Positions 4,898 to 16,680 of a DNA stretch of 16,680 nt are shown here, piece by piece (the stretch's first letter is position 1; each line of letters begins with the position of its first letter). The DNA comes from an uncultured Oscillospiraceae bacterium (GTDB taxonomy: Bacteria > Bacillota > Clostridia > Oscillospirales > Oscillospiraceae): positions 1 through 16,680 of the forward strand of contig CAKUJA010000050.1 of assembly GCA_934661135.1 (NCBI GenBank), given 5' to 3'. The translations under genes were made by a program, and so were the position numbers. Below the pieces are notes generated by a model. That model saw nothing but the letters and a program-made list of their open reading frames with translations, ran no database searches and was not told where the DNA came from.

Positions 4898-5064
4898 GGA
4901 TATGGAAAGAAATCTGCCCGCCGGGAACGAGTTTGGTCTCGGGGGGCAGAAGGCGCGTCATACGTTGGGCGCGTCAGGCAAGAATGCAGGTCGATCCGCG
5001 AAAAAACCGGCCGCCGGGACTGGCGAACACGCACAAGGACAACAACAAAATACCGCGCAGAGCA

Positions 5065-5107
5065 AGAGAAGTCCTTCCGGGAAACCGGAAGGACTTCTCT
5101 TTTGCCC
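5065..5107 (+). terminator. Strong hairpin terminator about 170 nt downstream of the regulator gene
   Basis: Perfect 16-bp stem AGAGAAGTCCTTCCGG (5065-5080) / CCGGAAGGACTTCTCT (5085-5100) with a GAAA loop, then TTTGCCC. Confidence 0.6.
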
Positions 5108-5260
5108 AAAAGTCTGCTGGTTTACGCTTTGGAGCCCTGCAATAAAAATGCGAATTGCATTAGGCTTCGGTTTTGCCGTTCTGCTTGTGTCGGCATCCAG
5201 GCCAGAGGATGCAGTATAATGACCTCCTGAATCAAAGAACGATTTGCAGGAGGGACTGCT

Positions 5261-6106
5261 ATGAACGAGAGAAAATTATCTGCAACCATACTCGCAGAAT
5301 ACGACCGCTGGCTGCGGCAGGAGGAGCGAGCCGATGCTACGCGGGAAAAATATCTGCGCAGCATCCGAGCCTTTGCCGCGTGGCTGGGCAGCGCGGCGGT
5401 CACGAAGGATGCCGTGACGGAATGGAAGGCACATTTAGTCCAGCAGCGGCAAGCACCATCTACCATCAACACCGCGCTTGCCGCGCTGAACGGCCTGCTC
5501 CGCTTCCTCGGCTGGGAGGACTGCCGCGCAAAATTTCTGAAAGTCCAGCGCTGCATCTTCCGCGCACCGGAGCGCGAGCTGGCGCACGCGGAGTATGCCC
5601 GTCTGCTCGCCGCCGCAAAAAATTCCGGCGATGCGCGGCTTGCGCTGCTGATGGAGAGCATCTGCGCGACCGGTATCCGCGTCAGCGAGGTGAAGTTTCT
5701 CACCGTGGAAGCCGCGCAGTGCGGCCGTGCCGAGGTTGCATTGAAGGGCAAGATCCGCACCATTCTGCTGCCCGCGAAGCTCTGCCGCAAGCTGCTGAAA
5801 TACGCCAAAAAGCAAAAAATCGCCCGCGGCGAGATTTTTCTCACCACGGGCGGAAAAGGCATGGACAGGCGGCAGATCTGGTCTGCCATGAAGCGGCTGT
5901 GCCGCAAGGCGGGCGTCGCGCCGTCGAAGGTGTTTCCGCACAATCTGCGGCATCTGTTCGCAACGGCGTACTACCGCGTGTATCGCGACATCGTGAAGCT
6001 CGCGGATATGCTCGGCCACAGCTCGATTGAAACGACGCGCATCTATCTCGTCGAGAGCGGCGCGGAGCACCAGCGCCAGCTCGACCGGCTTGGCCTGATC
6101 ACATAG
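5261..6106 (+). CDS. Tyrosine site-specific recombinase (phage-integrase/XerCD family, small ~280-aa type)
   Basis: 281 aa with an AGGAGGG RBS 7 nt upstream. Catalytic signature residues are present: ATGIRVSE (Arg), HNLRH (His-x-x-Arg), GHSSIETTRIYL (His...Tyr), plus an N-terminal SAM-like core-binding domain. Confidence 0.9.
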   Translation: MNERKLSATILAEYDRWLRQEERADATREKYLRSIRAFAAWLGSAAVTKDAVTEWKAHLVQQRQAPSTINTALAALNGLLRFLGWEDCRAKFLKVQRCIFRAPERELAHAEYARLLAAAKNSGDARLALLMESICATGIRVSEVKFLTVEAAQCGRAEVALKGKIRTILLPAKLCRKLLKYAKKQKIARGEIFLTTGGKGMDRRQIWSAMKRLCRKAGVAPSKVFPHNLRHLFATAYYRVYRDIVKLADMLGHSSIETTRIYLVESGAEHQRQLDRLGLIT

Positions 6107-6127
6107 GACAGAATCCATATTCTGTCC
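6106..6127. repeat. Left recombination-site candidate (IRL): palindromic GGACAGAAT-CCAT-ATTCTGTCC
   Basis: 6106-6122 (GGACAGAATCCATATTC) is the exact reverse complement of 6374-6390. The site overlaps the recombinase stop codon TAG at 6104-6106. Confidence 0.75.
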
Positions 6128-6174
6128 ATGCCTGTACCAGCAGAGCGCAGTATTCCACATTGCTATCTATTGAA

Positions 6175-6203
6175 AATATAGCACGGAATATGTCAAAAAT
6201 CAA
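6175..6203 (-). promoter_or_regulatory. Promoter inside the invertible segment, pointing toward the recombinase gene in this orientation
   Basis: The minus strand reads TTGATT (6203-6198), a 17-nt spacer, then TATATT (6180-6175). An overlapping TTGACA lies at 6196-6191. Confidence 0.55.
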
Positions 6204-6233
6204 TAGTGGGGCTACTTCTGCGCGCAAAAAATC

Positions 6234-6263
6234 CAGTCTCAAAAACTCGGTTTTTTGAGACTG
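6234..6263. terminator. Bidirectional terminator-like hairpin inside the invertible segment
   Basis: 12-bp stem CAGTCTCAAAAA (6234-6245) / TTTTTGAGACTG (6252-6263). T-rich tracts follow on the plus strand (TGCTTTTGTGCGCTTTTTTCTTTTT) and on the minus strand (GATTTTTTGCG). Confidence 0.5.
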
Positions 6264-6367
6264 TGCTTTTGTGCGCTTTTTTCTTTTTCGTTGGTCGTTT
6301 AGCCTGCGTTTCAAGGGAGCTTTTCCCTATTTCATCATGATTCTCATCTCGCTCTGCGGCAAGCGGT

Positions 6368-6390
6368 GGAACGGAATATGGATTCTGTCC
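6368..6390. repeat. Right recombination-site candidate (IRR): GGAACGGAAT-ATGG-ATTCTGTCC
   Basis: GAATATGGATTCTGTCC (6374-6390) is the reverse complement of 6106-6122. The central ATGG is inverted relative to CCAT in IRL. Confidence 0.75.
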
Positions 6391-6477
6391 ATGCCAAAAA
6401 GCGTGGCACGAAACAAGGTAGACCCAGCCCGTGGAAGCGGACAAAACATAAAGATATTTGATTTAGGAGGAACGATC

Positions 6478-9400
6478 ATGAAAAAACGATTCTTGGCAGG
6501 CTTGCTCATGCTTGCCATGATCCTCACCCTGCTGCCGGTCAGCGCACTGGCCAGCAACAGCAATGCAGCACCGCTTCAGGTGCTTATGATCGGCAACAGC
6601 CACACGGTCGACATGACCGAGTGGACCGATCAGGTGCTTCAGGACTCCGGCCTGAAGGATCAGATCCAGATCACGCCGCTCACGCCGATGGGCGGACGGA
6701 AGCTGTTCACCAACGATACGGTGCGCAGCTCGCATATTACGGCTGCGACATGGTCCGGTACGGAGGATGCGTGGAATGCCACGCATCAGGACAATGGCCG
6801 CGATGTCGGCTCTAAAAAGAGCCAGTATGACACGCTCCTGAACGACAGCGGCAAGACCTGGGATCTGGTTGTCGTGCAGGACTGGGAAGAATCCACAGTC
6901 AATTCCGATTCTGCCGCAGTCGCATCCGGCATTCAGCGTGCGGTGCAATGGCTGAGAAGCTATCCTTCCGTAACGGCGGATACGAAGATCGCATGGGCTG
7001 CCGACTGGCCTGACGCGGCCAACCATGCGGGTGCGCAGGGCAATATGACCGGCGCGATCGCTGCTGTAAATGCGCTGACGGAAAACGGCGTGAACTTTAT
7101 CATCCCCACGGGCCTGACCGTTGAAAATGCGCGCACCAGCTATTTTGATAAGGTCAACAACGCAGACGACAGCTATCTGCCTGGCAGCGAAGAGACCTAC
7201 GGCGGAATTGCGAACGTGGCGAAGTACCATCTGATGGAGCGCGACGCGAACCACCTGAGCTATGAACTGGGCTGCTACTCCGTGGCCGCAGTCACGATTG
7301 CAGAAATTGCCACGCAGTTTAACCTGATGAATCTGGATGCATTCCTGACTTCTTTGAAAACGGCACCGAAATGGACGAACCCCGCTGAGTGGAAGGGTAC
7401 ATTCAACGACAATATCTGGGCCATCGTGAAGGAGAGCGTGAAAAACGCGGTGGAATCCCCCACGCAGGTCACGCAGTCCGTCTATACGGAGGACCCGGCA
7501 GACATGATCGCCGCGCAGATCCTCGCGGCGGACTATACGGAAAGCGCCGCTGCCGCCGCAAAGGCGGACTCAGAGGATGCGCTGCGCACTATCGCTGAGG
7601 CTGTGAAGGCCACGGCGCAGGCCGCAGTAGGGGAAACTACCACGCTCAGCGTTTCCTCGGCCTATACCGCTCCGGTTGACGGCACAAAGGACAACAAGAC
7701 CGGTACGGCGGGCAAGTACGAGATCAAGGTATCCTTCCTGAACGGATACACGCAGAAAAACCTTGCTGTAATCTCCGGCGCGATCAAGCCGGATTATTAT
7801 GAAGGCGGCGAGGAAGAACTGACTGCAGCGAAGACGGCAGCAGCTGCGGATCTTGCGAAGACTGCAGCGCTTGTCGGCAAAGATGCGGAAGCATATAGCA
7901 GCGAGATCAACGCGGCCTACAGCACCAACGATGTGAATACCGCGCTGGCAGCGGCGAAGGCGGCCATGGTCGCAGACGCCGGGTATCTGTACGCGGACTG
8001 GATCGGTGCCGATGGCTGGAGCGTCGGCACGAAGATGCCTCTCGGCGAGGATACCGGTGTGCGCTTTACGATCCGTGAGGAAGGCGCCGATACCGTTCTG
8101 ACCATCAGCGGCAATGGCACAATTCCAGACTTGGTCATGAGTGGTGTACCGGAAAGAAGCTATTCTTCCCCCGCTTGGATGAACAGTGATGCGAGCGGTA
8201 ATATTACGAAGGTCGTGATTGAAGACGGCGTTGCGCTGGGCCATATGTCCTTGTGGCTGAGCCGCGTGAAGACGATGGAGATCGGGGAAAACGTCACCCT
8301 CCCCGCCAATGCAATTTACCTGAACGGCCAGAACTGCGACAGAACCATTACCTTCAAGGGCGCCGCTACCGTGAACAACCGCGCGATCGACGGCTACACC
8401 GGTTCTGACGGTAAGGGCAGTCAGGCCGCACAGAATGCACAGATTTTCGTGTATGCAGACTTTAATAAGCTCGGTGTTTCGAGCGCGGAGAGCTTTGTGG
8501 GCTCCACCGTTCTGAAAAACAACAACTACGGCCTGCCTATCGTTGTTGTCATCAACACCGGCAGCAGCGTGGAGCCGGAAGATGCCGTCCTTGCGCAGGG
8601 CAATGTTCCCGCGAAGGGTTGGAAGGATGACGGCACAGCCGACGGCGGCGATTCCGGCGTGACCTATACCATCAAAAAGATCGGCGATGAGGTCGTGCTG
8701 GAGTTCTCCGGCAGCGGCACGATTCCGACCTTTACAACATCGACACCGCATTACGTCAAGGCGCCGTGGTGGGGAACCAACAGCGGCAGCGCCGTCACAA
8801 AGGTCATTGTCAACAGCGGTGTTACCGTTGGCGGCTTAGCGCTCTACATTCCCACGGCAAAAGAGATCATCCTGAAGGATGGCGTGATGCTGAAACCGAA
8901 TGCAATCTATTTCAACACGCAGAATGTCGATACCGAAATCACCTTTGAGGGTGCGGCCACCGTTTCCTCCGGCTCGATTAGCTGGTATTCCGACAGCAAT
9001 CAGAAGAACAAGGCTGTGCAGATCACGGTGACGGCCGATTTCAGCAAGCTGCAGAAGTCCGGCAGCCGCGTGACGAAGGCCTCCGACTTTATCGATAGCG
9101 GCCTGCTGACGACGCTCAACAAAAACGGTCTGCCGATCGTGGTCGCGGTCAACACGGAAGACTCGAAAGCTGACGCACAGGAGTTTGGCATCACGACCGG
9201 CGGCTGGGATGAAAATGGCAATACGGTCGGCGATTCGACCGGCATCAAATACAAGATCTACACCGTCGGTGCGGATACGATCGTGGAATTCAGAGGCAAT
9301 GGCACTATGCCGGATTATGCTGCAACCGGCGTTACGAATCAAAATCTGCATACCAACCGTATGCCATGGCGAAATGACCAGGTGACGAAGATCATTGTCG

Positions 9401-11091
9401 GTGACGGCGTGCAGCCCGGACAGATGAGCCTGTATGTCAAGAACAATGTGCGGGAGATCGTGTTTGAAGGCAACGTCAATCTGAAAAAAAATACGATCTA
9501 TTTCAATACCCTGACACAGGATGTCAGCATTTTCTTTAACGGCACACAGGCGCAGCTTGTAAGCGGAGCCTTGGATGGTTACGGTGTAGGCACGGCACAC
9601 CACATTTACGTCTACGCAAAGTCCGGCACATTGACGGTTGGAGACAATAAGGTAACGACTATCAATGACTTTGCTGGCAGAGGCGTGACCACGACTGCGG
9701 ATGACAGCAAGACCGTCGCACTTCTGGTGTTTGACGATCAACTCTCCGCAGCGAAGAGCGCCGTCAACACCTCCGAAATCATCGCCCTGACCGGCACCTG
9801 CCAGCAAAACTCGGAAGATGGCAAGAAAACAGCGGTTGAGACCTATGTGAAGAACAAACTCGGTGAGCAGTACGCTTCCATTACGGTGAGCGCGACCAAA
9901 AAGACAGCGGCGGTTTACACAATCACCCTCTCGACGGACGGGAAGAGCACCAGCTTTGATCTGAAATTCACCTTCACCTTCTCCCACAGTTGGAGCTACA
10001 CCGCAACCGGCGCGACGATCACGGCGGAATGCGCACATTGCCACGACAAGCAGGCCGCGCGCCTGATCGCCTCCGATCAGAAAGAGACCGGCAACGCGAT
10101 TGAGGCCACGGTGAGCTACGGTACGGCATGGCCGGGCGGTGCGCTGACGGTCAGCTATACGAAGGACAGCGCTCCGTTCGACGGTATGCCGAAGGATGCC
10201 GGCAGCTATACGGCCAGCATGACGATCTCTGACGCTACCGCTACCGTGAACTTTACGATCAGTCATGCTTTGACGCACCATGAGGCGGTTGATGCGACTT
10301 GCACAGAAAACGGCAACAATGAATACTATACCTGCGAGACCTGCCACAAGGTTTTCAAGGATGCAGCAGGTACGCAGGAGACCACTGTTGCAGCCGAGAT
10401 CATTAAGGCACCCGGTAAGCATGACTGGTCCAACAAGGACGGCGTCTGCAAGGTCTGCCAGACCAAGTGCAGCGAAGCGCACACCGCGGGCACGACCTGC
10501 CCGGTCTGCGGCAAATACACGCCGATCCCGGTCGTTCCTGCGGGCGAACCCGCGAAGAATCCGTTCAACCCCAACGCCGGTAAGACCAGATTTGCAGACG
10601 TTTCCAGCAACGCTTGGTATGCCTCCGCGGTCGATTATGTGGTCGACAAGGGTCTCATGAACGGCACGGGCGAGAACAAGTTCTCCCCGAACGCGGATAC
10701 GACGCGCGGCATGATCGTTACGATCCTCGCCCGTCTCGACGGCAAGAACACGTCCGGCACGCCTTGGTATCAGGCTGGCCAGCGCTGGGCGATGGAGTAC
10801 GAAATTTCGGACGGCACGAACATGACCAACGCCATCACCCGCGAGCAGCTCGTCGCAATGCTGTTCCGCTATGCGGTCAAGAACGGCCTCGAAGCGGTCA
10901 CGCTCTCTGAGAATCTGACCCAGTTTACGGACGCTTCAGACATCAGTGCGTGGGCCGTCTCCGCGATGCAGTGGGCCGTCGGTCAAGGCCTGATTCAGGG
11001 TTCGAACGGCCAGCTGCGCCCGCAGGCGAACGCCTCCCGCGCCGAGGTCGCCACGATTCTCATGCGCTTCTGTGAGCTGATGAAAAAGTAA
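6478..11091 (+). CDS. Large secreted cell-surface protein: signal peptide, SGNH/GDSL-like hydrolase domain (DUF4886-like), three ~200-aa tandem modules, Cys-rich region, three C-terminal SLH domains
   Basis: I place the start at ATG 6478 (GGAGG RBS 7 nt upstream; MKKRFLAGLLMLAMILTLLPVSALA signal peptide) rather than the track's 6271. SGNH block I (LMIGNSHT) and block V-like (RDANHLS) motifs are present. SLH motifs occur at FADVSSNAWYASAVDYVVDKGLMNG and FTDASDISAWAVSAMQWAVGQGLIQG. A terminator follows the gene. Confidence 0.9.
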   Translation: MKKRFLAGLLMLAMILTLLPVSALASNSNAAPLQVLMIGNSHTVDMTEWTDQVLQDSGLKDQIQITPLTPMGGRKLFTNDTVRSSHITAATWSGTEDAWNATHQDNGRDVGSKKSQYDTLLNDSGKTWDLVVVQDWEESTVNSDSAAVASGIQRAVQWLRSYPSVTADTKIAWAADWPDAANHAGAQGNMTGAIAAVNALTENGVNFIIPTGLTVENARTSYFDKVNNADDSYLPGSEETYGGIANVAKYHLMERDANHLSYELGCYSVAAVTIAEIATQFNLMNLDAFLTSLKTAPKWTNPAEWKGTFNDNIWAIVKESVKNAVESPTQVTQSVYTEDPADMIAAQILAADYTESAAAAAKADSEDALRTIAEAVKATAQAAVGETTTLSVSSAYTAPVDGTKDNKTGTAGKYEIKVSFLNGYTQKNLAVISGAIKPDYYEGGEEELTAAKTAAAADLAKTAALVGKDAEAYSSEINAAYSTNDVNTALAAAKAAMVADAGYLYADWIGADGWSVGTKMPLGEDTGVRFTIREEGADTVLTISGNGTIPDLVMSGVPERSYSSPAWMNSDASGNITKVVIEDGVALGHMSLWLSRVKTMEIGENVTLPANAIYLNGQNCDRTITFKGAATVNNRAIDGYTGSDGKGSQAAQNAQIFVYADFNKLGVSSAESFVGSTVLKNNNYGLPIVVVINTGSSVEPEDAVLAQGNVPAKGWKDDGTADGGDSGVTYTIKKIGDEVVLEFSGSGTIPTFTTSTPHYVKAPWWGTNSGSAVTKVIVNSGVTVGGLALYIPTAKEIILKDGVMLKPNAIYFNTQNVDTEITFEGAATVSSGSISWYSDSNQKNKAVQITVTADFSKLQKSGSRVTKASDFIDSGLLTTLNKNGLPIVVAVNTEDSKADAQEFGITTGGWDENGNTVGDSTGIKYKIYTVGADTIVEFRGNGTMPDYAATGVTNQNLHTNRMPWRNDQVTKIIVGDGVQPGQMSLYVKNNVREIVFEGNVNLKKNTIYFNTLTQDVSIFFNGTQAQLVSGALDGYGVGTAHHIYVYAKSGTLTVGDNKVTTINDFAGRGVTTTADDSKTVALLVFDDQLSAAKSAVNTSEIIALTGTCQQNSEDGKKTAVETYVKNKLGEQYASITVSATKKTAAVYTITLSTDGKSTSFDLKFTFTFSHSWSYTATGATITAECAHCHDKQAARLIASDQKETGNAIEATVSYGTAWPGGALTVSYTKDSAPFDGMPKDAGSYTASMTISDATATVNFTISHALTHHEAVDATCTENGNNEYYTCETCHKVFKDAAGTQETTVAAEIIKAPGKHDWSNKDGVCKVCQTKCSEAHTAGTTCPVCGKYTPIPVVPAGEPAKNPFNPNAGKTRFADVSSNAWYASAVDYVVDKGLMNGTGENKFSPNADTTRGMIVTILARLDGKNTSGTPWYQAGQRWAMEYEISDGTNMTNAITREQLVAMLFRYAVKNGLEAVTLSENLTQFTDASDISAWAVSAMQWAVGQGLIQGSNGQLRPQANASRAEVATILMRFCELMKK
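8011..9738 (+). repeat. Three diverged tandem protein-level repeats (~194-202 aa each) within the surface-protein gene
   Basis: Units start near 8011 (DGWSVG...), 8617 (GWKDDG...) and 9199 (GGWDENG...). They share the landmarks G-(V/I)-x-(F/Y)-x-I...(S/R)G(N/S)GT(I/M)P(D/T)...VTK(V/I)(V/I)(V/I)...NAIY(L/F)N...GLPIVV(V/A)(I/V)NT. The repeats are diverged at the DNA level. Confidence 0.75.
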
Positions 11092-11158
11092 ATCGTGATG
11101 ATTCATCGTTGCGCTTGCGGCATACGCCGTTTGCCGGAACATCACATCGCAAAACCCG

Positions 11159-11190
11159 GAAGGGGCGGCTACGGCCGCCCCTTCTTTCTA
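11159..11190 (+). terminator. Rho-independent terminator of the surface-protein gene
   Basis: 11-bp stem GAAGGGGCGGC (11159-11169) / GCCGCCCCTTC (11174-11184) with a TACG loop, then TTTCTA. Confidence 0.8.
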
Positions 11191-11278
11191 TTCGAATACC
11201 TTCCTTGGGCCGTGCCCCATTTGAAGAATAATCGTTAGCCGTTTCGTTCCAATATCAAAAAGTTACTCAAATGCGCTA

Positions 11279-11307
11279 TTGACAAACGTTTGTTCAGACG
11301 TTATCAT
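11279..11307 (+). promoter_or_regulatory. Near-consensus promoter overlapped by a perfect 12-bp palindromic operator
   Basis: TTGACA (11279-11284), a 17-nt spacer, then TATCAT (11302-11307). The palindrome ACAAACGTTTGT (11282-11293) overlaps the -35 hexamer and the spacer. Confidence 0.6.
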
Positions 11308-11313
11308 GTGAGA

Positions 11314-11412
11314 CATAGCAGGAAATCCTGCCGACAACAGAATATTCCGAAGCGCACCATAAAACGTAATGAAGGAGCGCTGCGACCGAATAATGGCCGC
11401 AGCGCTCCTTTT
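11314..11412 (+). ncRNA. Candidate short (~100 nt) transcript or leader from the 11279 promoter to the 11372-11412 terminator
   Basis: A promoter and an intrinsic-terminator-like hairpin lie ~100 nt apart, with a small GCAGG-AAAT-CCTGC hairpin at 11328-11341. There is no SD-preceded ORF; ATG 11369 (32 codons) lacks an RBS. Confidence 0.3.
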
Positions 11413-11422
11413 GGTGCTCTTT
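11372..11422 (+). terminator. Intrinsic-terminator-like hairpin (possible attenuator of the rep leader)
   Basis: 13-bp stem AAGGAGCGCTGCG (11372-11384) / CGCAGCGCTCCTT (11398-11410), followed by TTGGTGCTCTTT. Confidence 0.5.
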
Positions 11423-11525
11423 AGGAGAAATACGGGGGTGGGATCACAATCCCAAACAACTGAATAACCAGCAACGCGGATCACACCGCAGGTTAGGAAA
11501 CGCGCACGGCGCGCGCGACGACCTC

Positions 11526-11826
11526 GTCGAAGCAAGCTGCGTATCTTTCGCTTCCGTGCAAGCACGAAAGCTCAATCACTACGCTGCTTCTCCTCTCCCC
11601 ACAAAGCCATCCGGCTTTGCGGGGTCCCCAAGACGGGCGAGCGAGAAACGCGCCGTGGGCAGCCTTGGCAGGCTGCATCATGCTGCCCAATCTGTTTGGA
11701 CACACAATGTCCGGCCATAGTTGGGGTTCCCACGAAGTAGCCTACTTCGTGGGGAAAGGAGAAACAAACGGAGCGACTGAGCTTTCGCGCTTGCGCGGAA
11801 GCGAAAGATACGCAGTTTGTTTCGAC
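11526..11826. repeat. Long imperfect inverted repeat with 75/76-nt arms (11526-11600 and 11751-11826) around a 150-nt GC-rich, hairpin-rich centre
   Basis: The arms are about 85% complementary, including a 20-nt perfect core CTGCGTATCTTTCGCTTCCG (11537-11556) paired with CGGAAGCGAAAGATACGCAG (11796-11815). All substitutions but one are transitions, and there is one 1-nt indel. Confidence 0.8.
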
Positions 11827-11976
11827 GCAAGACAGGCTGCTATGCGCTGGGGTTGAAAGCAGTAAAGACCCCAGTCACAGGCTGTGAGAGCTGCCAAGCT
11901 CTGTCCGCGCTGTTCCCCATCGCCGGGGCGCGAGCTGCAAATACGGCGGAAACAATTTCAAAAGAATGGAGTGTTT

Positions 11977-13354: not shown

Positions 13355-13417
13355 TAGCGACTATTGTAGCGACTGCAAAGGACATTTCAAATTTCCATAG
13401 CGACTAATGTAGCGACT
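13355..13417 (+). repeat. Iteron-like direct repeats: four copies of TAGCGACT arranged as two 20-bp units
   Basis: TAGCGACTATTGTAGCGACT (13355-13374) and TAGCGACTAATGTAGCGACT (13398-13417) differ by one mismatch. The units are 43 bp apart and the copies within each unit are 12 bp apart. They lie between rep and mobC. Confidence 0.7.
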
Positions 13418-13494
13418 ACGGAATCCAAGGTATAAAAACTCTAGATTTTATGCGGTGTACGAAACGGTGGCAGGAGACTCAGGCTGCGTTTCAG

Positions 13495-13549
13495 GCTTTT
13501 CTTGCTGCGCAAGAAAAGCGCAAGCATCGCCGTTTGATATCAAAACGGC
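13495..13549 (+). promoter_or_regulatory. Candidate oriT region: two adjacent inverted repeats upstream of mobC
   Basis: 11-bp perfect hairpin GCTTTTCTTGC-TGC-GCAAGAAAAGC (13495-13519) and near-palindrome GCCGTTTGATATCAAAACGGC (13529-13549). The position immediately 5' of mobC-relaxase is typical for an oriT. Confidence 0.4.
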
Positions 13550-13608
13550 ACTTGCAGGGAGAACCCTGACCCCAATATGCCGCCCTTTGGCGGTGGAAAG
13601 GAGACTCG

Positions 13609-13920
13609 ATGAACGAAGAACCATACAAGATCTGTTTGCGACTGAACGCCGATGAAGCCCAAAAGCTGATCACGAACGCCAAAGCCTGCGGCCTGACACG
13701 AACCGCGTACTTGCGCAGGCTGCTGAACGGATATGATCTCAAACCAAGACCATCCGCAGAGATGGAAGCGCTGCGCACTGAAATCCATCAGATCGGCAAC
13801 AACATCAACCAGATCGCCCGCAAAGCAAATGCCGGATTTGCCAGCCGGGAAGAAACCACGCGGGCATTACGAATGCTGGACGAGGTCTACGGTCTACTCT
13901 ATGAGGTTGCGAAACGATAA
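13609..13920 (+). CDS. mobC: MobC-family relaxosome accessory protein
   Basis: 103 aa with an AAGGAG RBS. The conserved MobC motif IHQIGNNINQIARKAN is present. Its stop overlaps the relaxase start (TAATG at 13918-22), indicating translational coupling. Confidence 0.85.
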   Translation: MNEEPYKICLRLNADEAQKLITNAKACGLTRTAYLRRLLNGYDLKPRPSAEMEALRTEIHQIGNNINQIARKANAGFASREETTRALRMLDEVYGLLYEVAKR

Positions 13921-15287
13921 TGGCAATTACAAAGATTCTGTACCGGAACGGCGGCTTGCGGCAGGCGATCGATTACATCACGAATCCTGCTAAAACGAAC
14001 GAGCAACTGCTGACTGATTATGTCCGCTGCGATCCCGGTCATGCCGCGCAACAGATGATGGACACAAAGCGCGCCCTTGGCAAAACCGCCGGACGGCAGT
14101 GCTATCACATCATTCAGTCTTTCAAGCCGGACGAGATCACGCCGGAGCTGGCACATGAGATCGCCAGACAATTCGCAGCCGAGCATTTGCCGGGATACGA
14201 AGCCGTCATTGCGACCCATGTGGACAAAGCACATATTCACTCACATATTGTGTTCAACTCGGTCAATGCCGTCACCGGGAAAATGTATCACAGCACCCGC
14301 GAAAACAACTACAAGCAGATTCGCGGCGTTTCAGACCGGCTGTGCAAAGCGCATGGTTTGAGCATCGTTTTGGAAAACGATGAAAAGAAAGCTGTCAGCT
14401 ATGCGGAGTGGTTGCGTCAGAAAAAGAGCCAGCCGACGTTCCGCTCTATGCTCGAAGCGGACTTGCACGATGCCATCGAGGATGCCAACGATCTCGGTCA
14501 CTTTTTCCTTCTTATGGAGCATAGGGGCTATGAGATCCATCACGGCAAACGCCTTGGATTTCGGTTACGCGGGCAGGAACATTTCATGTGTCCGGAACGC
14601 AGAAATCCAGCCTTCTCAGAAGAACGTATTGAACAGGCCATTCTGGGCAATCTGGAGCAAATCGAAGCTGGAAGAAAACCTGCCTTCACGCCGAAGCCAA
14701 AGCTGCAGCCATATCGCCCACATCCAAAGTACACGGGATTCCTTGCGCTATATTATCACTACTGCTATCTGCTTGATCGAATTGAAAAACGGCAGTACCC
14801 GCCGCGCATGACGCCACACTTACGAAAAGAGATCATGAAGGCTGATATTTACAAAGCACGTCTGAAATTTTTACAGGAACAGAATATCTGCACACCGGAC
14901 GATTTGGCTGGCTGCATACAGAATATAGAACAGAAGATTGCAAAACTGTCCAAACAGCGAACGGTTCTGAACGTGCGTAAGAAAAAGCGAAAGACGCTCT
15001 ATGATGCTCTGGCGGCAGAAGCTGCCTTCGAAGGATTTGAGCCAAAGAAAGCAGAATATGACGATGCAAAAGAGGTTCTGGATACTTGCGGCATTTCGCG
15101 GCAAACCCTCACGGAGGAAAAAGCGGATCTCTATGAGCAGCTTGCGCAGGTCAATCAGCAGATCCGGCAAGAGCGCTGGAAGCTCAAGCAATGCAAGGAA
15201 ATCTCGGAGACGGCAGTCATCATGCAGCGGGACATCGACCGCGTTGAACAGCAGCCGCAGCGGATAGCTGTCACACGGCAGCGGTAA
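13920..15287 (+). CDS. Relaxase/mobilization nuclease (MobA/VirD2 family)
   Basis: 455 aa. The N-terminal relaxase domain has the histidine-triad motif HVDKAHIHSHIVFNSV and a Tyr-containing N-terminus (MAITKILYRNGG...). The C-terminal part looks coiled-coil-like. Confidence 0.9.
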   Translation: MAITKILYRNGGLRQAIDYITNPAKTNEQLLTDYVRCDPGHAAQQMMDTKRALGKTAGRQCYHIIQSFKPDEITPELAHEIARQFAAEHLPGYEAVIATHVDKAHIHSHIVFNSVNAVTGKMYHSTRENNYKQIRGVSDRLCKAHGLSIVLENDEKKAVSYAEWLRQKKSQPTFRSMLEADLHDAIEDANDLGHFFLLMEHRGYEIHHGKRLGFRLRGQEHFMCPERRNPAFSEERIEQAILGNLEQIEAGRKPAFTPKPKLQPYRPHPKYTGFLALYYHYCYLLDRIEKRQYPPRMTPHLRKEIMKADIYKARLKFLQEQNICTPDDLAGCIQNIEQKIAKLSKQRTVLNVRKKKRKTLYDALAAEAAFEGFEPKKAEYDDAKEVLDTCGISRQTLTEEKADLYEQLAQVNQQIRQERWKLKQCKEISETAVIMQRDIDRVEQQPQRIAVTRQR

Positions 15288-15382
15288 GGCGTGTCGTGCC
15301 GATGTGTGCGGTTTTATAGGCCGACCGCGCAGCCGTGCAGGTCTGCGCCACGCAAACGCCGCGTCCGCCCACCGTGCGGCGC

Positions 15383-15416
15383 AAAAAAACGAGGGCTGGC
15401 ATCAAGCCAGCCCTCG
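15383..15416 (-). terminator. Rho-independent terminator of the minus-strand membrane-protein gene; may also stop relaxase transcription
   Basis: 11-bp stem CGAGGGCTGGC (15390-15400) / GCCAGCCCTCG (15406-15416). A 7-nt A-run on plus (15383-15389) gives a U-tail on the minus strand. The stop codon of the minus-strand CDS lies in the loop. Confidence 0.7.
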
Positions 15417-15638
15417 CCTTGCAAATCGAATGAGGGAGATGATCCATGACAGCATCACGCAGCCCAGCATCACCAGAAAAATCCCATCCGCCAGTGTCGC
15501 GTGCACACGATACCACGGTTGAAATACAGTGAGCATCAGCACCAGGTACACCAGCGGAATGGATAATCTTAATTTCATTGCAATACGAATCAGCAAAAGC
15601 AGCAGTTGAATCATCACGGAAAAACAGGCAGTTAACAT
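15402..15638 (-). CDS. Small hydrophobic membrane protein (78 aa, about 3 predicted TM segments), function unknown
   Basis: The minus strand reads GAGGAGG, 7 nt, then ATG at 15638. The sequence is strongly hydrophobic (QLLLLLIRIA, LVYLVLMLTVF, IFLVMLGCVMLSWIISLI). A dedicated terminator follows. Confidence 0.6.
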   Translation of the reverse strand: MLTACFSVMIQLLLLLIRIAMKLRLSIPLVYLVLMLTVFQPWYRVHATLADGIFLVMLGCVMLSWIISLIRFARRGLA

Positions 15639-15730
15639 CGGCGATCCTCCTCAAACAGTTTGTCGGATGTTAACTCTCCTGGCTGCTTTTTGCAAGTACA
15701 TTTTTTGAAAATCAAATCAGGGAGGTCGTC

Positions 15731-15910
15731 ATGAACCAAACTACAAAACCAGCGGCCTGCCCTGATTCCGTCCGTGTTGAGCGCATTCAGATCTCGCACG
15801 GGCGAACTATCCGCATCGTCTCCGTTTTCCCCAAAAACGGAAGTCAGACAGCGGAAGAAAAACTCAGGGTTTTGGCCGCGTTGGAACTTCAGCGAAAAAA
15901 GTCGGTATAA
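15731..15910 (+). CDS. Small TnpW-like transposon-encoded protein (59 aa; below the ORF-track cutoff)
   Basis: GGGAGG RBS 6 nt upstream of ATG 15731. The product is MNQTTKPAACPDSVRVERIQISHGRTIRIVSVFPKNGSQTAEEKLRVLAALELQRKKSV. From memory, its pattern (...R-I-x-x-x-x-Y/I-x-V...F...T-x-E-(D/E)-K-L-x-x-L) resembles small proteins found beside serine recombinases in clostridial elements. Confidence 0.5.
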   Translation: MNQTTKPAACPDSVRVERIQISHGRTIRIVSVFPKNGSQTAEEKLRVLAALELQRKKSV

Positions 15911-15927
15911 GGGCTAGACTTCTCGCG

Positions 15928-15965
15928 CCGCTTGGAGTATTGTGTGCTCACAATGCTCTGAGCGG
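15928..15965 (+). promoter_or_regulatory. 17-bp RNA hairpin just upstream of the serine-recombinase RBS
   Basis: CCGCTTGGAGTATTGTG (15928-15944) pairs with CACAATGCTCTGAGCGG (15949-15965) around a TGCT loop. The three non-Watson-Crick positions are all G-U wobbles on the plus-strand RNA. Confidence 0.45.
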
Positions 15966-15975
15966 TTTGACTTAA

Positions 15976-16680
<705 letters not shown>

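Follow-up and report, generated by a model that had tools for sequence, protein, structure and literature searches.

The closest described counterparts of the switch reported here are the fimS element of E. coli, the cwpV switch of C. difficile, the promoter invertons of Bacteroides and the gut microbiome, and the ipuS element of UPEC. Joyce and Dorman reportedly found in 2002 that expression of fimE depends on orientation via a Rho-dependent terminator inside fimS, and RecV is not encoded beside cwpV and serves several switches. We know of no antisense terminator in the recombinase genes of ipuS. The fimS element is a 314-bp invertible element that carries the promoter of a surface structure between short inverted repeats, and it is flipped by tyrosine recombinases whose genes adjoin it upstream (PMC8777976). 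The 195-bp cwpV switch precedes the gene of a very large cell-wall protein, is OFF in most cells and involves a terminator; its promoter lies outside the invertible region, and the OFF state results from a terminator formed in the transcript (PMC2784873). In Bacteroides and gut-microbiome invertons, the promoters lie near genes for surface structures, and the adjacent invertase gene is not itself regulated by the inverton (PMC11892184). The ipuS element is a promoter-containing invertible element that switches the UpaE autotransporter by means of the tyrosine recombinases IpuA and IpuB (PMC6083910). In the sections of PhaseFinder-type surveys that were searched, fewer invertons were reported from Clostridia-like Firmicutes_A, and the family of cassettes described below did not appear among them.

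The human gut harbours abundant Oscillospiraceae, and to our knowledge little is known about surface variation in this family. We analyzed a stretch of 16,680 nucleotides from an uncultured member of the family (contig CAKUJA010000050.1; hereafter, the window), in which the original prediction had placed an inverton caught OFF between a tyrosine recombinase gene and a gene for a large SLH surface protein. The features of the locus, listed from left to right, were as follows; the promoter, the transcription start and the terminators are predictions from consensus or structure.

5022-5063, plus strand: left boundary shared by the conserved cassette and the mobile element around it, beginning GGCGAACACGCAC
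5064-5105, plus strand: perfect 17-bp stem-loop (17 nt, 100% complementary, 4-nt loop) followed by TTTTG, within the conserved cassette
5261-6106, plus strand: Xer-like tyrosine recombinase of 281 aa, the presumed invertase
5852-5807, minus strand: predicted intrinsic terminator within the recombinase ORF (hairpin 5852 to 5821, T-run 5820 to 5807)
6168 to 5807, minus strand: predicted non-coding antisense RNA of ~360 nt in the present OFF orientation, deduced from promoter and terminator
6106-6127: left core site (IRL), a perfect 9-4-9 palindrome, GGACAGAAT-CCAT-ATTCTGTCC
6128-6368: invertible segment, 241 bp between the full 22-nt sites and 245 nt between the 20-nt arms
6203 to 6175, minus strand: predicted extended -10 promoter, TTGATT-17-(TG)-TATATT, now facing the recombinase gene
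6220-6276, both strands: two-way terminator-like hairpin from structure prediction, with a U-tract on the plus strand to 6288
6369-6390: right core site (IRR), GAACGGAAT-ATGG-ATTCTGTCC, with two mismatches to the palindromic pattern
6391-6477, plus strand: 87-nt 5' leader of the surface-protein gene, with the RBS AGGAGG at 6465-6470 and no promoter detected
6478-11091, plus strand: surface protein of 1537 aa, the presumed switch target, with a signal peptide, DUF4886 and C-terminal SLH repeats
Predicted ON-state junctions: GGACAGAATCCATATTCCGTTCCACC on the left and GGCATGGACAGAATATGGATTCTGTCC on the right

The locus represents a known kind of switch, the invertible promoter, and the putative antisense terminator inside the recombinase ORF is its new part. 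As in fim, a short invertible element, here with a predicted promoter, lies between inverted repeats with a recombinase gene adjoining on the upstream side, and recombinase expression is here proposed to be tied to orientation. Unlike fim, which has two recombinases and 9-bp repeats, this locus has a single recombinase outside the FimB/FimE family and 9-4-9 palindromic sites, the left of which starts on the final base of the recombinase TAG stop codon; the proposed coupling would act through an antisense RNA that ends at an intrinsic terminator in the recombinase ORF, and the host is a Gram-positive gut anaerobe that carries the unit on a mobile element. With cwpV and RecV the locus shares an origin in gut Clostridia, a short switch before a very large surface or cell-wall protein gene, a site-specific recombinase, a predicted terminator and an OFF majority; however, the promoter match is internal to the segment here and the hairpin is two-way, an arrangement outside the cwpV type, and, unlike RecV, the recombinase is adjacent, with each paralogue having its own site centre. 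The likeness to PhaseFinder-type invertons consists of a promoter inverton near a surface gene, an adjacent tyrosine-type invertase and the human gut as habitat, whereas the invertons of Bacteroides differ in phylum, promoter type (sigma-70 extended -10 here) and repeat motif. The ipuS element toggles a large surface protein from an invertible promoter by tyrosine recombination, as is proposed here, but it is proteobacterial and has two recombinases.

The inverted repeat, the near-palindromic sites, their CCAT and ATGG centres and the overlap with the stop codon, all described in the original prediction, were borne out by the sequence. Positions 6106-6122 and 6374-6390 are exact reverse complements over 17 nt, the repeat lengthens to 20 nt at 95% (6106-6125 and 6371-6390), and the IRR centre ATGG is the reverse complement of the IRL centre CCAT, which places the two sites in inverted orientation. 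Exact inverted repeats of at least 17 nt with a gap of 50-400 nt arose in 0/300 first-order Markov randomizations of the window (maximum 16), and IRL and IRR were the only matches to the palindromic pattern in the window, against 0.00 expected from 200 shuffles. A multi-site shufflon was unsupported, since the whole window contained no third core site at up to 3 mismatches. The inner right arm of the window (GAACGGAAT) has one mismatch more than the arm GAACAGAAT of the contigs seen flipped, at a position where the logo of the family allows A or G.

Both orientations were found in related assemblies. Among 29 assemblies with a recombinase at least 92% identical and the same 17-nt repeats, the cassette was OFF in 26 and ON in 3; the segment was found inverted in L170, L171 and L185 and in the opposite (OFF) orientation in L166 and L167. 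Between L167 (OFF) and L171 (ON), there were 6/800 differences upstream, 0/1006 downstream and, once the interior was flipped, 0/251 in the 251 nt between the exact 17-nt repeats. Of 414 positions in the ON form predicted for the window, L171 matched 401. An orthologue of the window's surface-protein gene is carried by L185, with the ON-oriented switch ahead of the gene; in BLAST comparison with the window, L185 was colinear over 5073-6125 (94.5%) and 6371-8608 (92.7%) and inverted over 6106-6390 (92.3%). At the exact locus (the window, L001 and L164), all three assemblies were OFF. Sister cassettes with the same promoter and recombinases 83-85% identical also occurred in both states (L099 versus L098 and L106; L092 versus L104), and more distant homologous interiors lay on opposite strands in different genomes. 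The k141_ contig labels name a 141-mer, which exceeds the repeats (17-22 nt) in length, and the k-mers of other assemblers are also longer than these; therefore, an assembler could not have flipped the segment unaided. As in invertons of the fimS type, inverted repeats flank a short segment, and both orientations exist in natural populations (in other samples). Comparison with other assemblies strongly supported an inverton at this locus, and the segment presumably flips in the source strain itself. The prediction of a tyrosine-recombinase inverton caught OFF thus gained support from the two orientations in related assemblies and from the conservation of sites and promoter across the family.

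The 281-aa tyrosine recombinase adjoining the left site was confirmed, with a complete catalytic set. The protein contains Phage_integrase (PF00589, E 4.4e-25) and SAM-like N-terminal domains, and its residues R140, K164, H227, R230, H253 and Y262 align with the catalytic residues of XerD (XerD and XerC-like structures), giving the R-K-H-R-H/W-Y set of the superfamily in an intact ORF. It is not a member of the FimB/FimE profile NF007370 (23 bits against a cut-off of 221), and it also scored below the equivalog cut-offs of XerA (125.8 vs 220), XerD (113 vs 329.6) and XerC (105 vs 335). Judged by these profiles, the recombinase is Xer-like and not an equivalog of XerA, XerC or XerD; its sites form an inverted pair beside the gene, unlike the single dif site. 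The inversion is presumably catalysed by this protein, and a recombinase encoded elsewhere may be an alternative catalyst.

More than 100 homologous loci, from gut Clostridia and mostly from Oscillospiraceae, share this architecture. The repeat pair was present in 118 of the 161 fetched loci, with 185-326 nt between the arms, and usually began no more than ~15 nt from the recombinase stop codon; the site logo of the family, xGACARAAT-N4-ATTYTGTCx, occupies the same position relative to the stop codon as in the window. Left and right centres were reverse complements of each other in ~70 of 99 distinct loci, with at least 25 different centres. Members of the recombinase family often occur several per genome, and the differing 4-nt centres would prevent cross-reaction between such paralogues in one genome. 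In most of the 118 loci, an extended -10 promoter lay 30-60 nt from one repeat (TTGnnn-17-TGnTATAAT in nearly all), directed towards the recombinase in 85 loci and towards the target gene in 26, and a hairpin with A or T tracts was found in 44 of 96 distinct interiors, upstream of the -35 in 36 of these. The family comprises at least 7,976 clusters at 90% identity, and most of the retrieved genomes were uncultured MAGs. Its presumed targets fall into several classes, among them DUF4379 zinc-finger genes, further recombinases and giant surface proteins; the SLH pairing that the original prediction singled out is one of these classes and not the commonest. Some ~19 contigs stop within ~110 nt past the recombinase stop codon. 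Because the cassettes break metagenome assemblies, the family may have gone unremarked for this reason. Literature searches on the cassette family, and on DUF4379 with inversion, found nothing specific, and the repeat motif did not occur in two short supplement files of PMC11892184; the family of recombinases and switches is apparently undescribed. An identity as a phage feature was rejected, as IMG/VR held only two weak relatives, both at contig ends.

Within the segment, the minus-strand promoter TTGATT-17-TATATT predicted at 6203-6175 was recovered, with a TG extension in addition, and matches the consensus at 9 of 12 positions in the window. The end of its -10 hexamer lies 49 nt from the repeat that it faces, where ~50 nt had been predicted, and the scan for plus-strand promoters between 6107 and 6477 gave none at its threshold, in agreement with the predicted absence of such a promoter before ATG 6478. 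The hairpin predicted at 6234-6263 was also recovered, as a core of 12 pairs in a structure that extends to 6220-6276 (dG -29.5 kcal/mol, z -6.3 on the plus strand; dG -28.3, z -6.25 on the minus strand) and that is upstream of the promoter whichever way the segment lies. No known RNA family in Rfam matched across the window. Beyond the right site, the leader and the signal peptide were conserved up to 6551 in the P0008 loci.

The original prediction had also proposed that antisense transcripts enter the recombinase gene at its 3' end, and this is backed by a conserved, apparently minus-strand-specific terminator in the ORF. The stem consists of 14 pairs, 10 of them G-C, and the hairpin was kept in 85/85 distinct family genes, with 8-13 T among the 15 nt beyond the stem. 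It was retained, too, in the ~13 family loci whose left site had no partner within the fetched flank, so that these loci gave no contrast as a natural control. Across the 85 distinct genes, 95.8% of cells in the stem were paired, compared with 44-48% when the 3' partners were slid; double-sided changes occurred at 9 of the 14 pairs, and compensatory cells numbered 70 versus 15.8 in shuffles. There were 216 G.U cells on the antisense RNA versus 7 on the sense strand (A.C cells on the antisense), so that 95.8% of cells paired in the antisense RNA, compared with 78.2% in the sense mRNA. Column shuffles still paired at 88.5%, and the hairpin overlaps the conserved protein motif SGEIFLT, so that its conservation partly reflects coding constraint. 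These data suggest that the hairpin and T-run function as a terminator on the minus strand only. Given such a conserved terminator, the OFF-state promoter would probably make a defined antisense RNA of ~360 nt, which would cover recombinase codons H227 to Y262. An antisense ORF (6160 to 5435, 241 aa) was rejected as a gene because its length varies across the family (median 52 aa, range 9-317). Literature searches on antisense control of invertases found nothing specific.

We proposed, as the best explanation of the locus and with a probability of about 0.85, a promoter inversion switch with antisense coupling that is cargo of a mobile element. The two orientations in related assemblies are the directly observed part of this mechanism, and most other steps follow from sequence and comparison. 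The 281-aa recombinase would recombine the 22-bp sites at 6106-6127 and 6369-6390, and, because their CCAT and ATGG centres are oppositely oriented, recombination would flip the intervening 241 bp. The window would represent the OFF state of the SLH gene, with the internal promoter facing away and no other promoter before ATG 6478, and the hairpin at 6220-6276 with its U-tract would halt read-through from the recombinase gene. After inversion, the promoter would lie ~49 nt from the right site and transcribe through this site and the 87-nt leader into the SLH gene. In the OFF state, it would transcribe ~360 nt of antisense RNA covering IRL and the final third of the recombinase gene, ending at 5852-5807. 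Recombinase expression would in this way be coupled to the orientation of the switch; the antisense RNA could repress the recombinase and act as a latch favouring OFF or, alternatively, the terminator in the ORF could limit antisense interference. We give even odds to the broader proposal of a two-output promoter, which serves either the target operon or a ~360-nt antisense RNA against the recombinase mRNA, with a latch that sets the ON/OFF bias, in portable cassettes of a large family with orthogonal centres.

The position of the cassette invites another explanation. It lies exactly at the left end of the element, where at least 12 other contigs, whose left flanks are unrelated, become homologous to the window (5022-5063); the element encodes a replication organiser, a relaxase and a large serine recombinase, and the cassette's recombinase is Xer-like. 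This recombinase could be the integrase or resolvase of the element, its sites attachment or resolution sites, and inversion a non-regulatory by-product. We consider this extremely unlikely, since over 100 loci have both sites on the same flank of the gene, inverted and separated by ~245 nt, a large serine recombinase belonging to the element is encoded at the end opposite the cassette, and a promoter is conserved in the segment at a fixed distance from one repeat. The left boundary of the element bears no resemblance to the core site and was rejected as a core-site-like att site. Moreover, sister cassettes turn unrelated from the outer half of the right site: homology to L082, L084, L086 and L087 ends at 6389, inside the IRR outer arm, where ATTC is followed by TGTCC in the window and by CGTCT in these four.

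The very stable hairpin with U-tracts inside the segment, and a promoter with only a 9/12 consensus match in the window, would suit a cwpV-like mode, in which transcription begins outside (read-through from the recombinase gene would be one source), orientation governs only terminator formation, and the internal promoter match is irrelevant. However, the hairpin is terminator-like on both strands, so that read-through would be stopped in either orientation; it occurs, by the criteria applied, in only 44/96 distinct interiors, whereas the promoter is found at a conserved distance in nearly all; and a conserved antisense terminator in the recombinase ORF would make sense only with a firing promoter. 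This mode of control is thus very unlikely. It is also improbable that the source strain carries a frozen relic, locked OFF, with the SLH gene silent or driven by an unrecognised promoter. All three assemblies of the exact locus and 26/29 of the cassette type are OFF, and the right site departs from the palindrome by 2 mismatches, but the intact recombinase ORF retains every catalytic residue, the repeats agree without mismatch over 17 nt, and the orthologue with the same target gene in L185 is ON. An OFF majority is usual across the family (85 to 26), and CwpV is expressed by only ~5% of cells under standard laboratory conditions (PMC2784873).

Under the promoter inversion switch with antisense coupling, the whole unit would travel as cargo of an integrative mobilizable element, at its left end; as switch and target lie together on this element, a phase-variable surface trait could spread horizontally. 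The stem-loop at 5064-5105 resembles a terminator and would shield the recombinase gene from transcription arriving from upstream. With thousands of members in the recombinase family, promoter inversion appears to be used on a large scale by Oscillospiraceae, and among its targets are giant SLH-anchored proteins, which are probably exposed to phages, host immunity and other cells. If the terminator in the ORF works as proposed, it would provide a simple, sequence-encoded means to bias switching rates and set ON/OFF ratios, and the orthogonal site centres could serve as recombinase parts in engineering. Some cassettes of the family are carried on mobile elements, and the cassettes appear portable.

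The 14-nt direct repeat to which the original prediction drew attention, ATTCTGTCCATGCC, is present at 6119-6132 and 6382-6395, and it is missing from the sister cassettes L082, L084, L086 and L087 and from the subfamilies at 83-85% identity. On this ground, it was rejected as a functional element and probably has no function of its own. In the ON state, it turns the right site into a 14-4-14 palindrome, which may matter.

The sequence features underlying the original prediction of a tyrosine-recombinase inverton captured OFF were all recovered at the positions claimed for them: an exact inverted repeat of 17 nt (6106-6122 and 6374-6390), an extended -10 promoter on the minus strand within the segment (TTGATT-17-TG-TATATT, 6203 to 6175), a hairpin at 6234-6263, and a downstream gene (6478-11091) encoding a 1537-aa protein with C-terminal SLH repeats. 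The inverted repeat reaches 20 nt at 95% identity, and an exact repeat of such length with a gap of 50-400 nt was found in 0 of 300 randomised windows. The first base of the left core site is the last base of the recombinase stop codon TAG, consistent with the proposed overlap, and the core-site pattern matched the window only at the left and right sites, compared with zero matches expected in shuffles.

Features of the switch
5261-6106: tyrosine recombinase ORF, 281 aa, with a Phage_integrase catalytic domain and a SAM-like N-terminal domain
6106-6127: left core site, a perfect 22-bp quasi-palindrome, GGACAGAAT-CCAT-ATTCTGTCC
6369-6390: right core site, a 22-bp quasi-palindrome, GAACGGAAT-ATGG-ATTCTGTCC
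5852 to 5821, minus strand: terminator-like site, scored strong in the promoter scan, within the recombinase ORF and followed by ATTTTTTGC

The hairpin in its extended form (6220-6276) is highly stable, folding at -29.5 and -28.3 kcal/mol on the two strands, with a z of about -6.3. As previously proposed, the promoter scan found no plus-strand promoter from the left site to ATG 6478. The internal promoter of the segment is predicted to be active. An 11-mer, CTGTCCATGCC, occurs three times in the window (5858-5868, 6122-6132 and 6385-6395), with one copy, a reverse complement, lying within the recombinase ORF and adjoining the antisense terminator. Flipping of the segment would turn the right site into a 14-4-14 palindrome, GGCATGGACAGAAT-ATGG-ATTCTGTCCATGCC; this may reflect an extended half-site, different in the two states, or chance.

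Inversion was assessed by searching for matching DNA across other assemblies and comparing its orientation. The exact locus was present in two more assemblies (loci L001 and L164), both oriented as the window. Among 29 cassettes with recombinases 92-96% identical, the same 17-nt repeats and interiors 92-98% identical, 26 showed the window orientation and three (L170, L171 and L185) were flipped. In the cleanest pair, L167 and L171, the 800 nt leading up to the switch differed at 6 positions and the 1006 nt beyond it at none; between the exact repeats, the segment showed 0 of 251 mismatches when reverse-complemented, compared with 173 of 251 when not. The predicted ON form of the window, with the promoter facing the surface-protein gene, was equal to L171 at 401 of 414 positions. 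L185, a Logan assembly contig, is an orthologue of the window's own locus: it is colinear with the window over 5073-6125 (94.5%) and 6371-8608 (92.7%, the same surface-protein gene), and inverted over 6106-6390 (92.3%). Two sister cassettes (recombinases 83-85% identical, the same promoter hexamers and an analogous hairpin) were also inverted between samples; once flipped, L099 had 1 of 233 mismatches against L098 and L106, and L092 had 0 of 224 against L104. At 17-22 nt, the repeats fall short of the 141-mer given in the k141_ labels of the contigs, and the k-mers of other assemblers are likewise longer; thus, the assembler alone could not flip the segment, and each orientation therefore represents the majority in its sample. 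These results showed that near-identical cassettes exist in both orientations, and the flipped cassettes L170, L171 and L185 supported the inverton reading.

The 281-aa recombinase is the presumed agent of flipping. Its residues R140, K164, H227, R230, H253 and Y262 were all in place when it was aligned to XerD and XerC-like structures; it failed the FimB/FimE model (23 vs 221 bits) and fell below every Xer equivalog cut-off. There are 14 differences between the window and L164, a copy of 8.6 kb from a different sample, and 13 of them fall within a 167-nt stretch of the recombinase gene (5826-5992); this cluster adjoins the antisense-terminator stem, spans the H227 and R230 codons, and looks like a gene-conversion patch from a paralogous recombinase.

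Relatives of this recombinase number at least 7,976 (clusters at 90%, E no higher than 1e-60), and the genome hits were gut Clostridia, mostly Oscillospiraceae (e.g., Dysosmobacter, Lawsonibacter, Flavonifractor, Agathobaculum, Oscillibacter and Butyricicoccus), often with several family recombinases per genome. Of the 161 fetched loci, 118 had a repeat pair; it usually started no more than ~15 nt from the stop codon, and its arms were 185-326 nt apart. When aligned on their centres, the sites gave the logo xGACARAAT-NNNN-ATTYTGTCx, in which the four central bases vary widely across loci (at least 25 variants). Identity of the crossover region, as the tyrosine recombinase mechanism entails, predicts matching (reverse-complement) centres; among 99 distinct loci in which a simple centre-finder located both centres, the right one was the reverse complement of the left in ~70. 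In one locus the centre is palindromic (ATAT) and the neighbouring bases are asymmetric, which suggests an overlap region of at least 6 nt. A TTGnnn-17-TGnTATAAT promoter occurs in most interiors, its -10 ending at a distance of 30-60 nt from one repeat. This promoter faces the recombinase in 85 loci and the downstream gene in 26, with 6 ambiguous cases; homologous interiors sit on opposite strands in different genomes. In addition, ~19 contigs terminate within roughly 110 nt past the recombinase stop, and most recombinase clusters are known solely from contigs of 1-2 kb, which fits heterogeneity or repetition at the switch. Overall, the site, promoter and hairpins were conserved and co-varying. 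Paralogous switches of one genome usually carry different 4-nt centres, such as TAAC and CAAC or GAAT and TCAC (sets compared included L049/L064/L072, L005/L018, L048/L066 and L071/L076, the last pair having TTTT in common); differing centres would block cross-recombination between them.

The putative terminator inside the recombinase gene lies ~320 nt downstream of the OFF-state promoter, and its structure recurs in all 85 distinct family genes, even at protein identities as low as 58%. Standard pairs occupied 95.8% of cells, compared with 44-48% when the 3' partners were slid by 1-3 columns, and 9 of the 14 stem pairs had changes on both sides. Compensatory cells numbered 70, against 15.8 +/- 3.3 in shuffles, and some of these changes alter the protein on both sides (e.g., I-A-R-G...T-T-G-G vs T-V-S-G...T-R-N-G). 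G.U pairs on the minus-strand RNA, which are A.C mismatches in the mRNA, filled 216 cells, and the reverse case only 7; thus, the stem pairs at 95.8% in the antisense transcript and 78.2% in the sense transcript. The 15 bases after the stem include 8-13 T on the minus strand only, and the structure is strand-specific. Column shuffles still paired 88.5% of stem cells, so the conservation is partly a coding constraint, and it is the strand asymmetry together with the double-sided changes that argues for selection on an RNA.

Since the invertible promoter in its present orientation was the sole minus-strand promoter found at the locus, we infer that it would produce a discrete antisense RNA of ~360 nt (~6168 to 5807), covering the codons of H227, R230, H253 and Y262. 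A long antisense ORF (6160 to 5435) was considered as a gene and rejected; this ORF was not conserved, and the predicted RNA is therefore probably non-coding. The antisense RNA may repress the recombinase and so act as a latch stabilising OFF; alternatively, the terminator might merely confine antisense transcription. In assemblies the OFF orientation outnumbers ON by 3:1 to 9:1, which is consistent with a latch, without being proof of one.

The targets of the family are diverse. DUF4379 treble-clef zinc-finger proteins were the commonest (35 of 98 loci; e.g., L099 3637-4752, L176 3446-4475 and L087 1281-2161), and a second tyrosine recombinase of ~290 aa lay under the invertible promoter in ~20 of 98 loci (e.g., L119 3679-4551, L005 5131-5994 and L068 5118-5924), suggesting recombinase cascades. 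A smaller group comprised large secreted proteins (BspA-type LRR, Big_3 and SLH). The closest relatives of the window carry DUF4379 genes or frameshifted remnants between the switch and the large SLH protein gene; the window has none there, and this part appears to have been lost. Compared with the related locus L175, the surface gene retains its leader and signal peptide (up to 6551) and its SLH end (10541-11091), and the middle is replaced, which is a cassette-like variation of the exposed part. The swap was also seen against L165 and L166; the window's middle contains the DUF4886 match of the 1537-aa protein, and the L175 protein (1767 aa in whole) has Big_2 and Listeria-Bacteroides repeat matches.

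Homology to relatives of the window has an abrupt start at 5022 (GGCGAACACGCA...), and at least 12 unrelated left flanks precede this point.

Features of the putative element
5022-6551, 10541-11559, 11781-11955, 13398-13584 and 15288-16676: stretches in common with L175
11884-13344: replisome-organiser/DnaC-like gene
13920-15287: MobA/VirD2 relaxase
15991-16680+: start of a large serine recombinase with Resolvase and Recombinase domains, running off the window

The last shared stretch includes the serine recombinase start. L175 carries this element minus the replication and relaxase genes; there, a chromosomal amylase gene comes next after the serine recombinase gene. On the basis of the shared stretches, the serine recombinase, the replication gene and the relaxase, we infer that an integrative mobilizable element carries the switch with its target as cargo at its left end, and that the serine recombinase probably moves this element. 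The element spans 5022 to past 16680, with its right end beyond the window.

The inverton itself belongs to a well-known kind of switch, and surveys of invertons in gut bacteria already exist. It follows the same logic as fimS with FimB/FimE, namely a promoter within the segment, an adjacent recombinase and, presumably here, orientation-dependent control of the recombinase, but its enzyme fails the FimB/FimE model; it also differs from cwpV, whose promoter is outside the invertible region (PMC2784873) rather than inside. Our literature search, which was incomplete in coverage so that absence does not equal novelty, found no account of the recombinase family or of its site, and none of an invertase gene containing an antisense terminator. 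The novel side would be an antisense terminator shared across the family, together with a portable and insulated cassette, and both merit experimental follow-up; the antisense RNA with its effect and the mobility of the element are predictions.

A second long inverted repeat (11525-11583 and 11769-11827; 59-nt arms, 88% complementary, 185 nt apart) lies upstream of the replisome-organiser gene, with no promoter inside; in L175 it lacks the spacer, leaving the arms directly adjacent. This repeat could form an origin-like hairpin, or it could mark a deletable segment. The upstream chromosomal flank encodes a 340-aa protein with an Mrr_cat restriction-endonuclease domain (414-1436), adjoining a xanthine/uracil permease and an HTH protein and unrelated to the switch.
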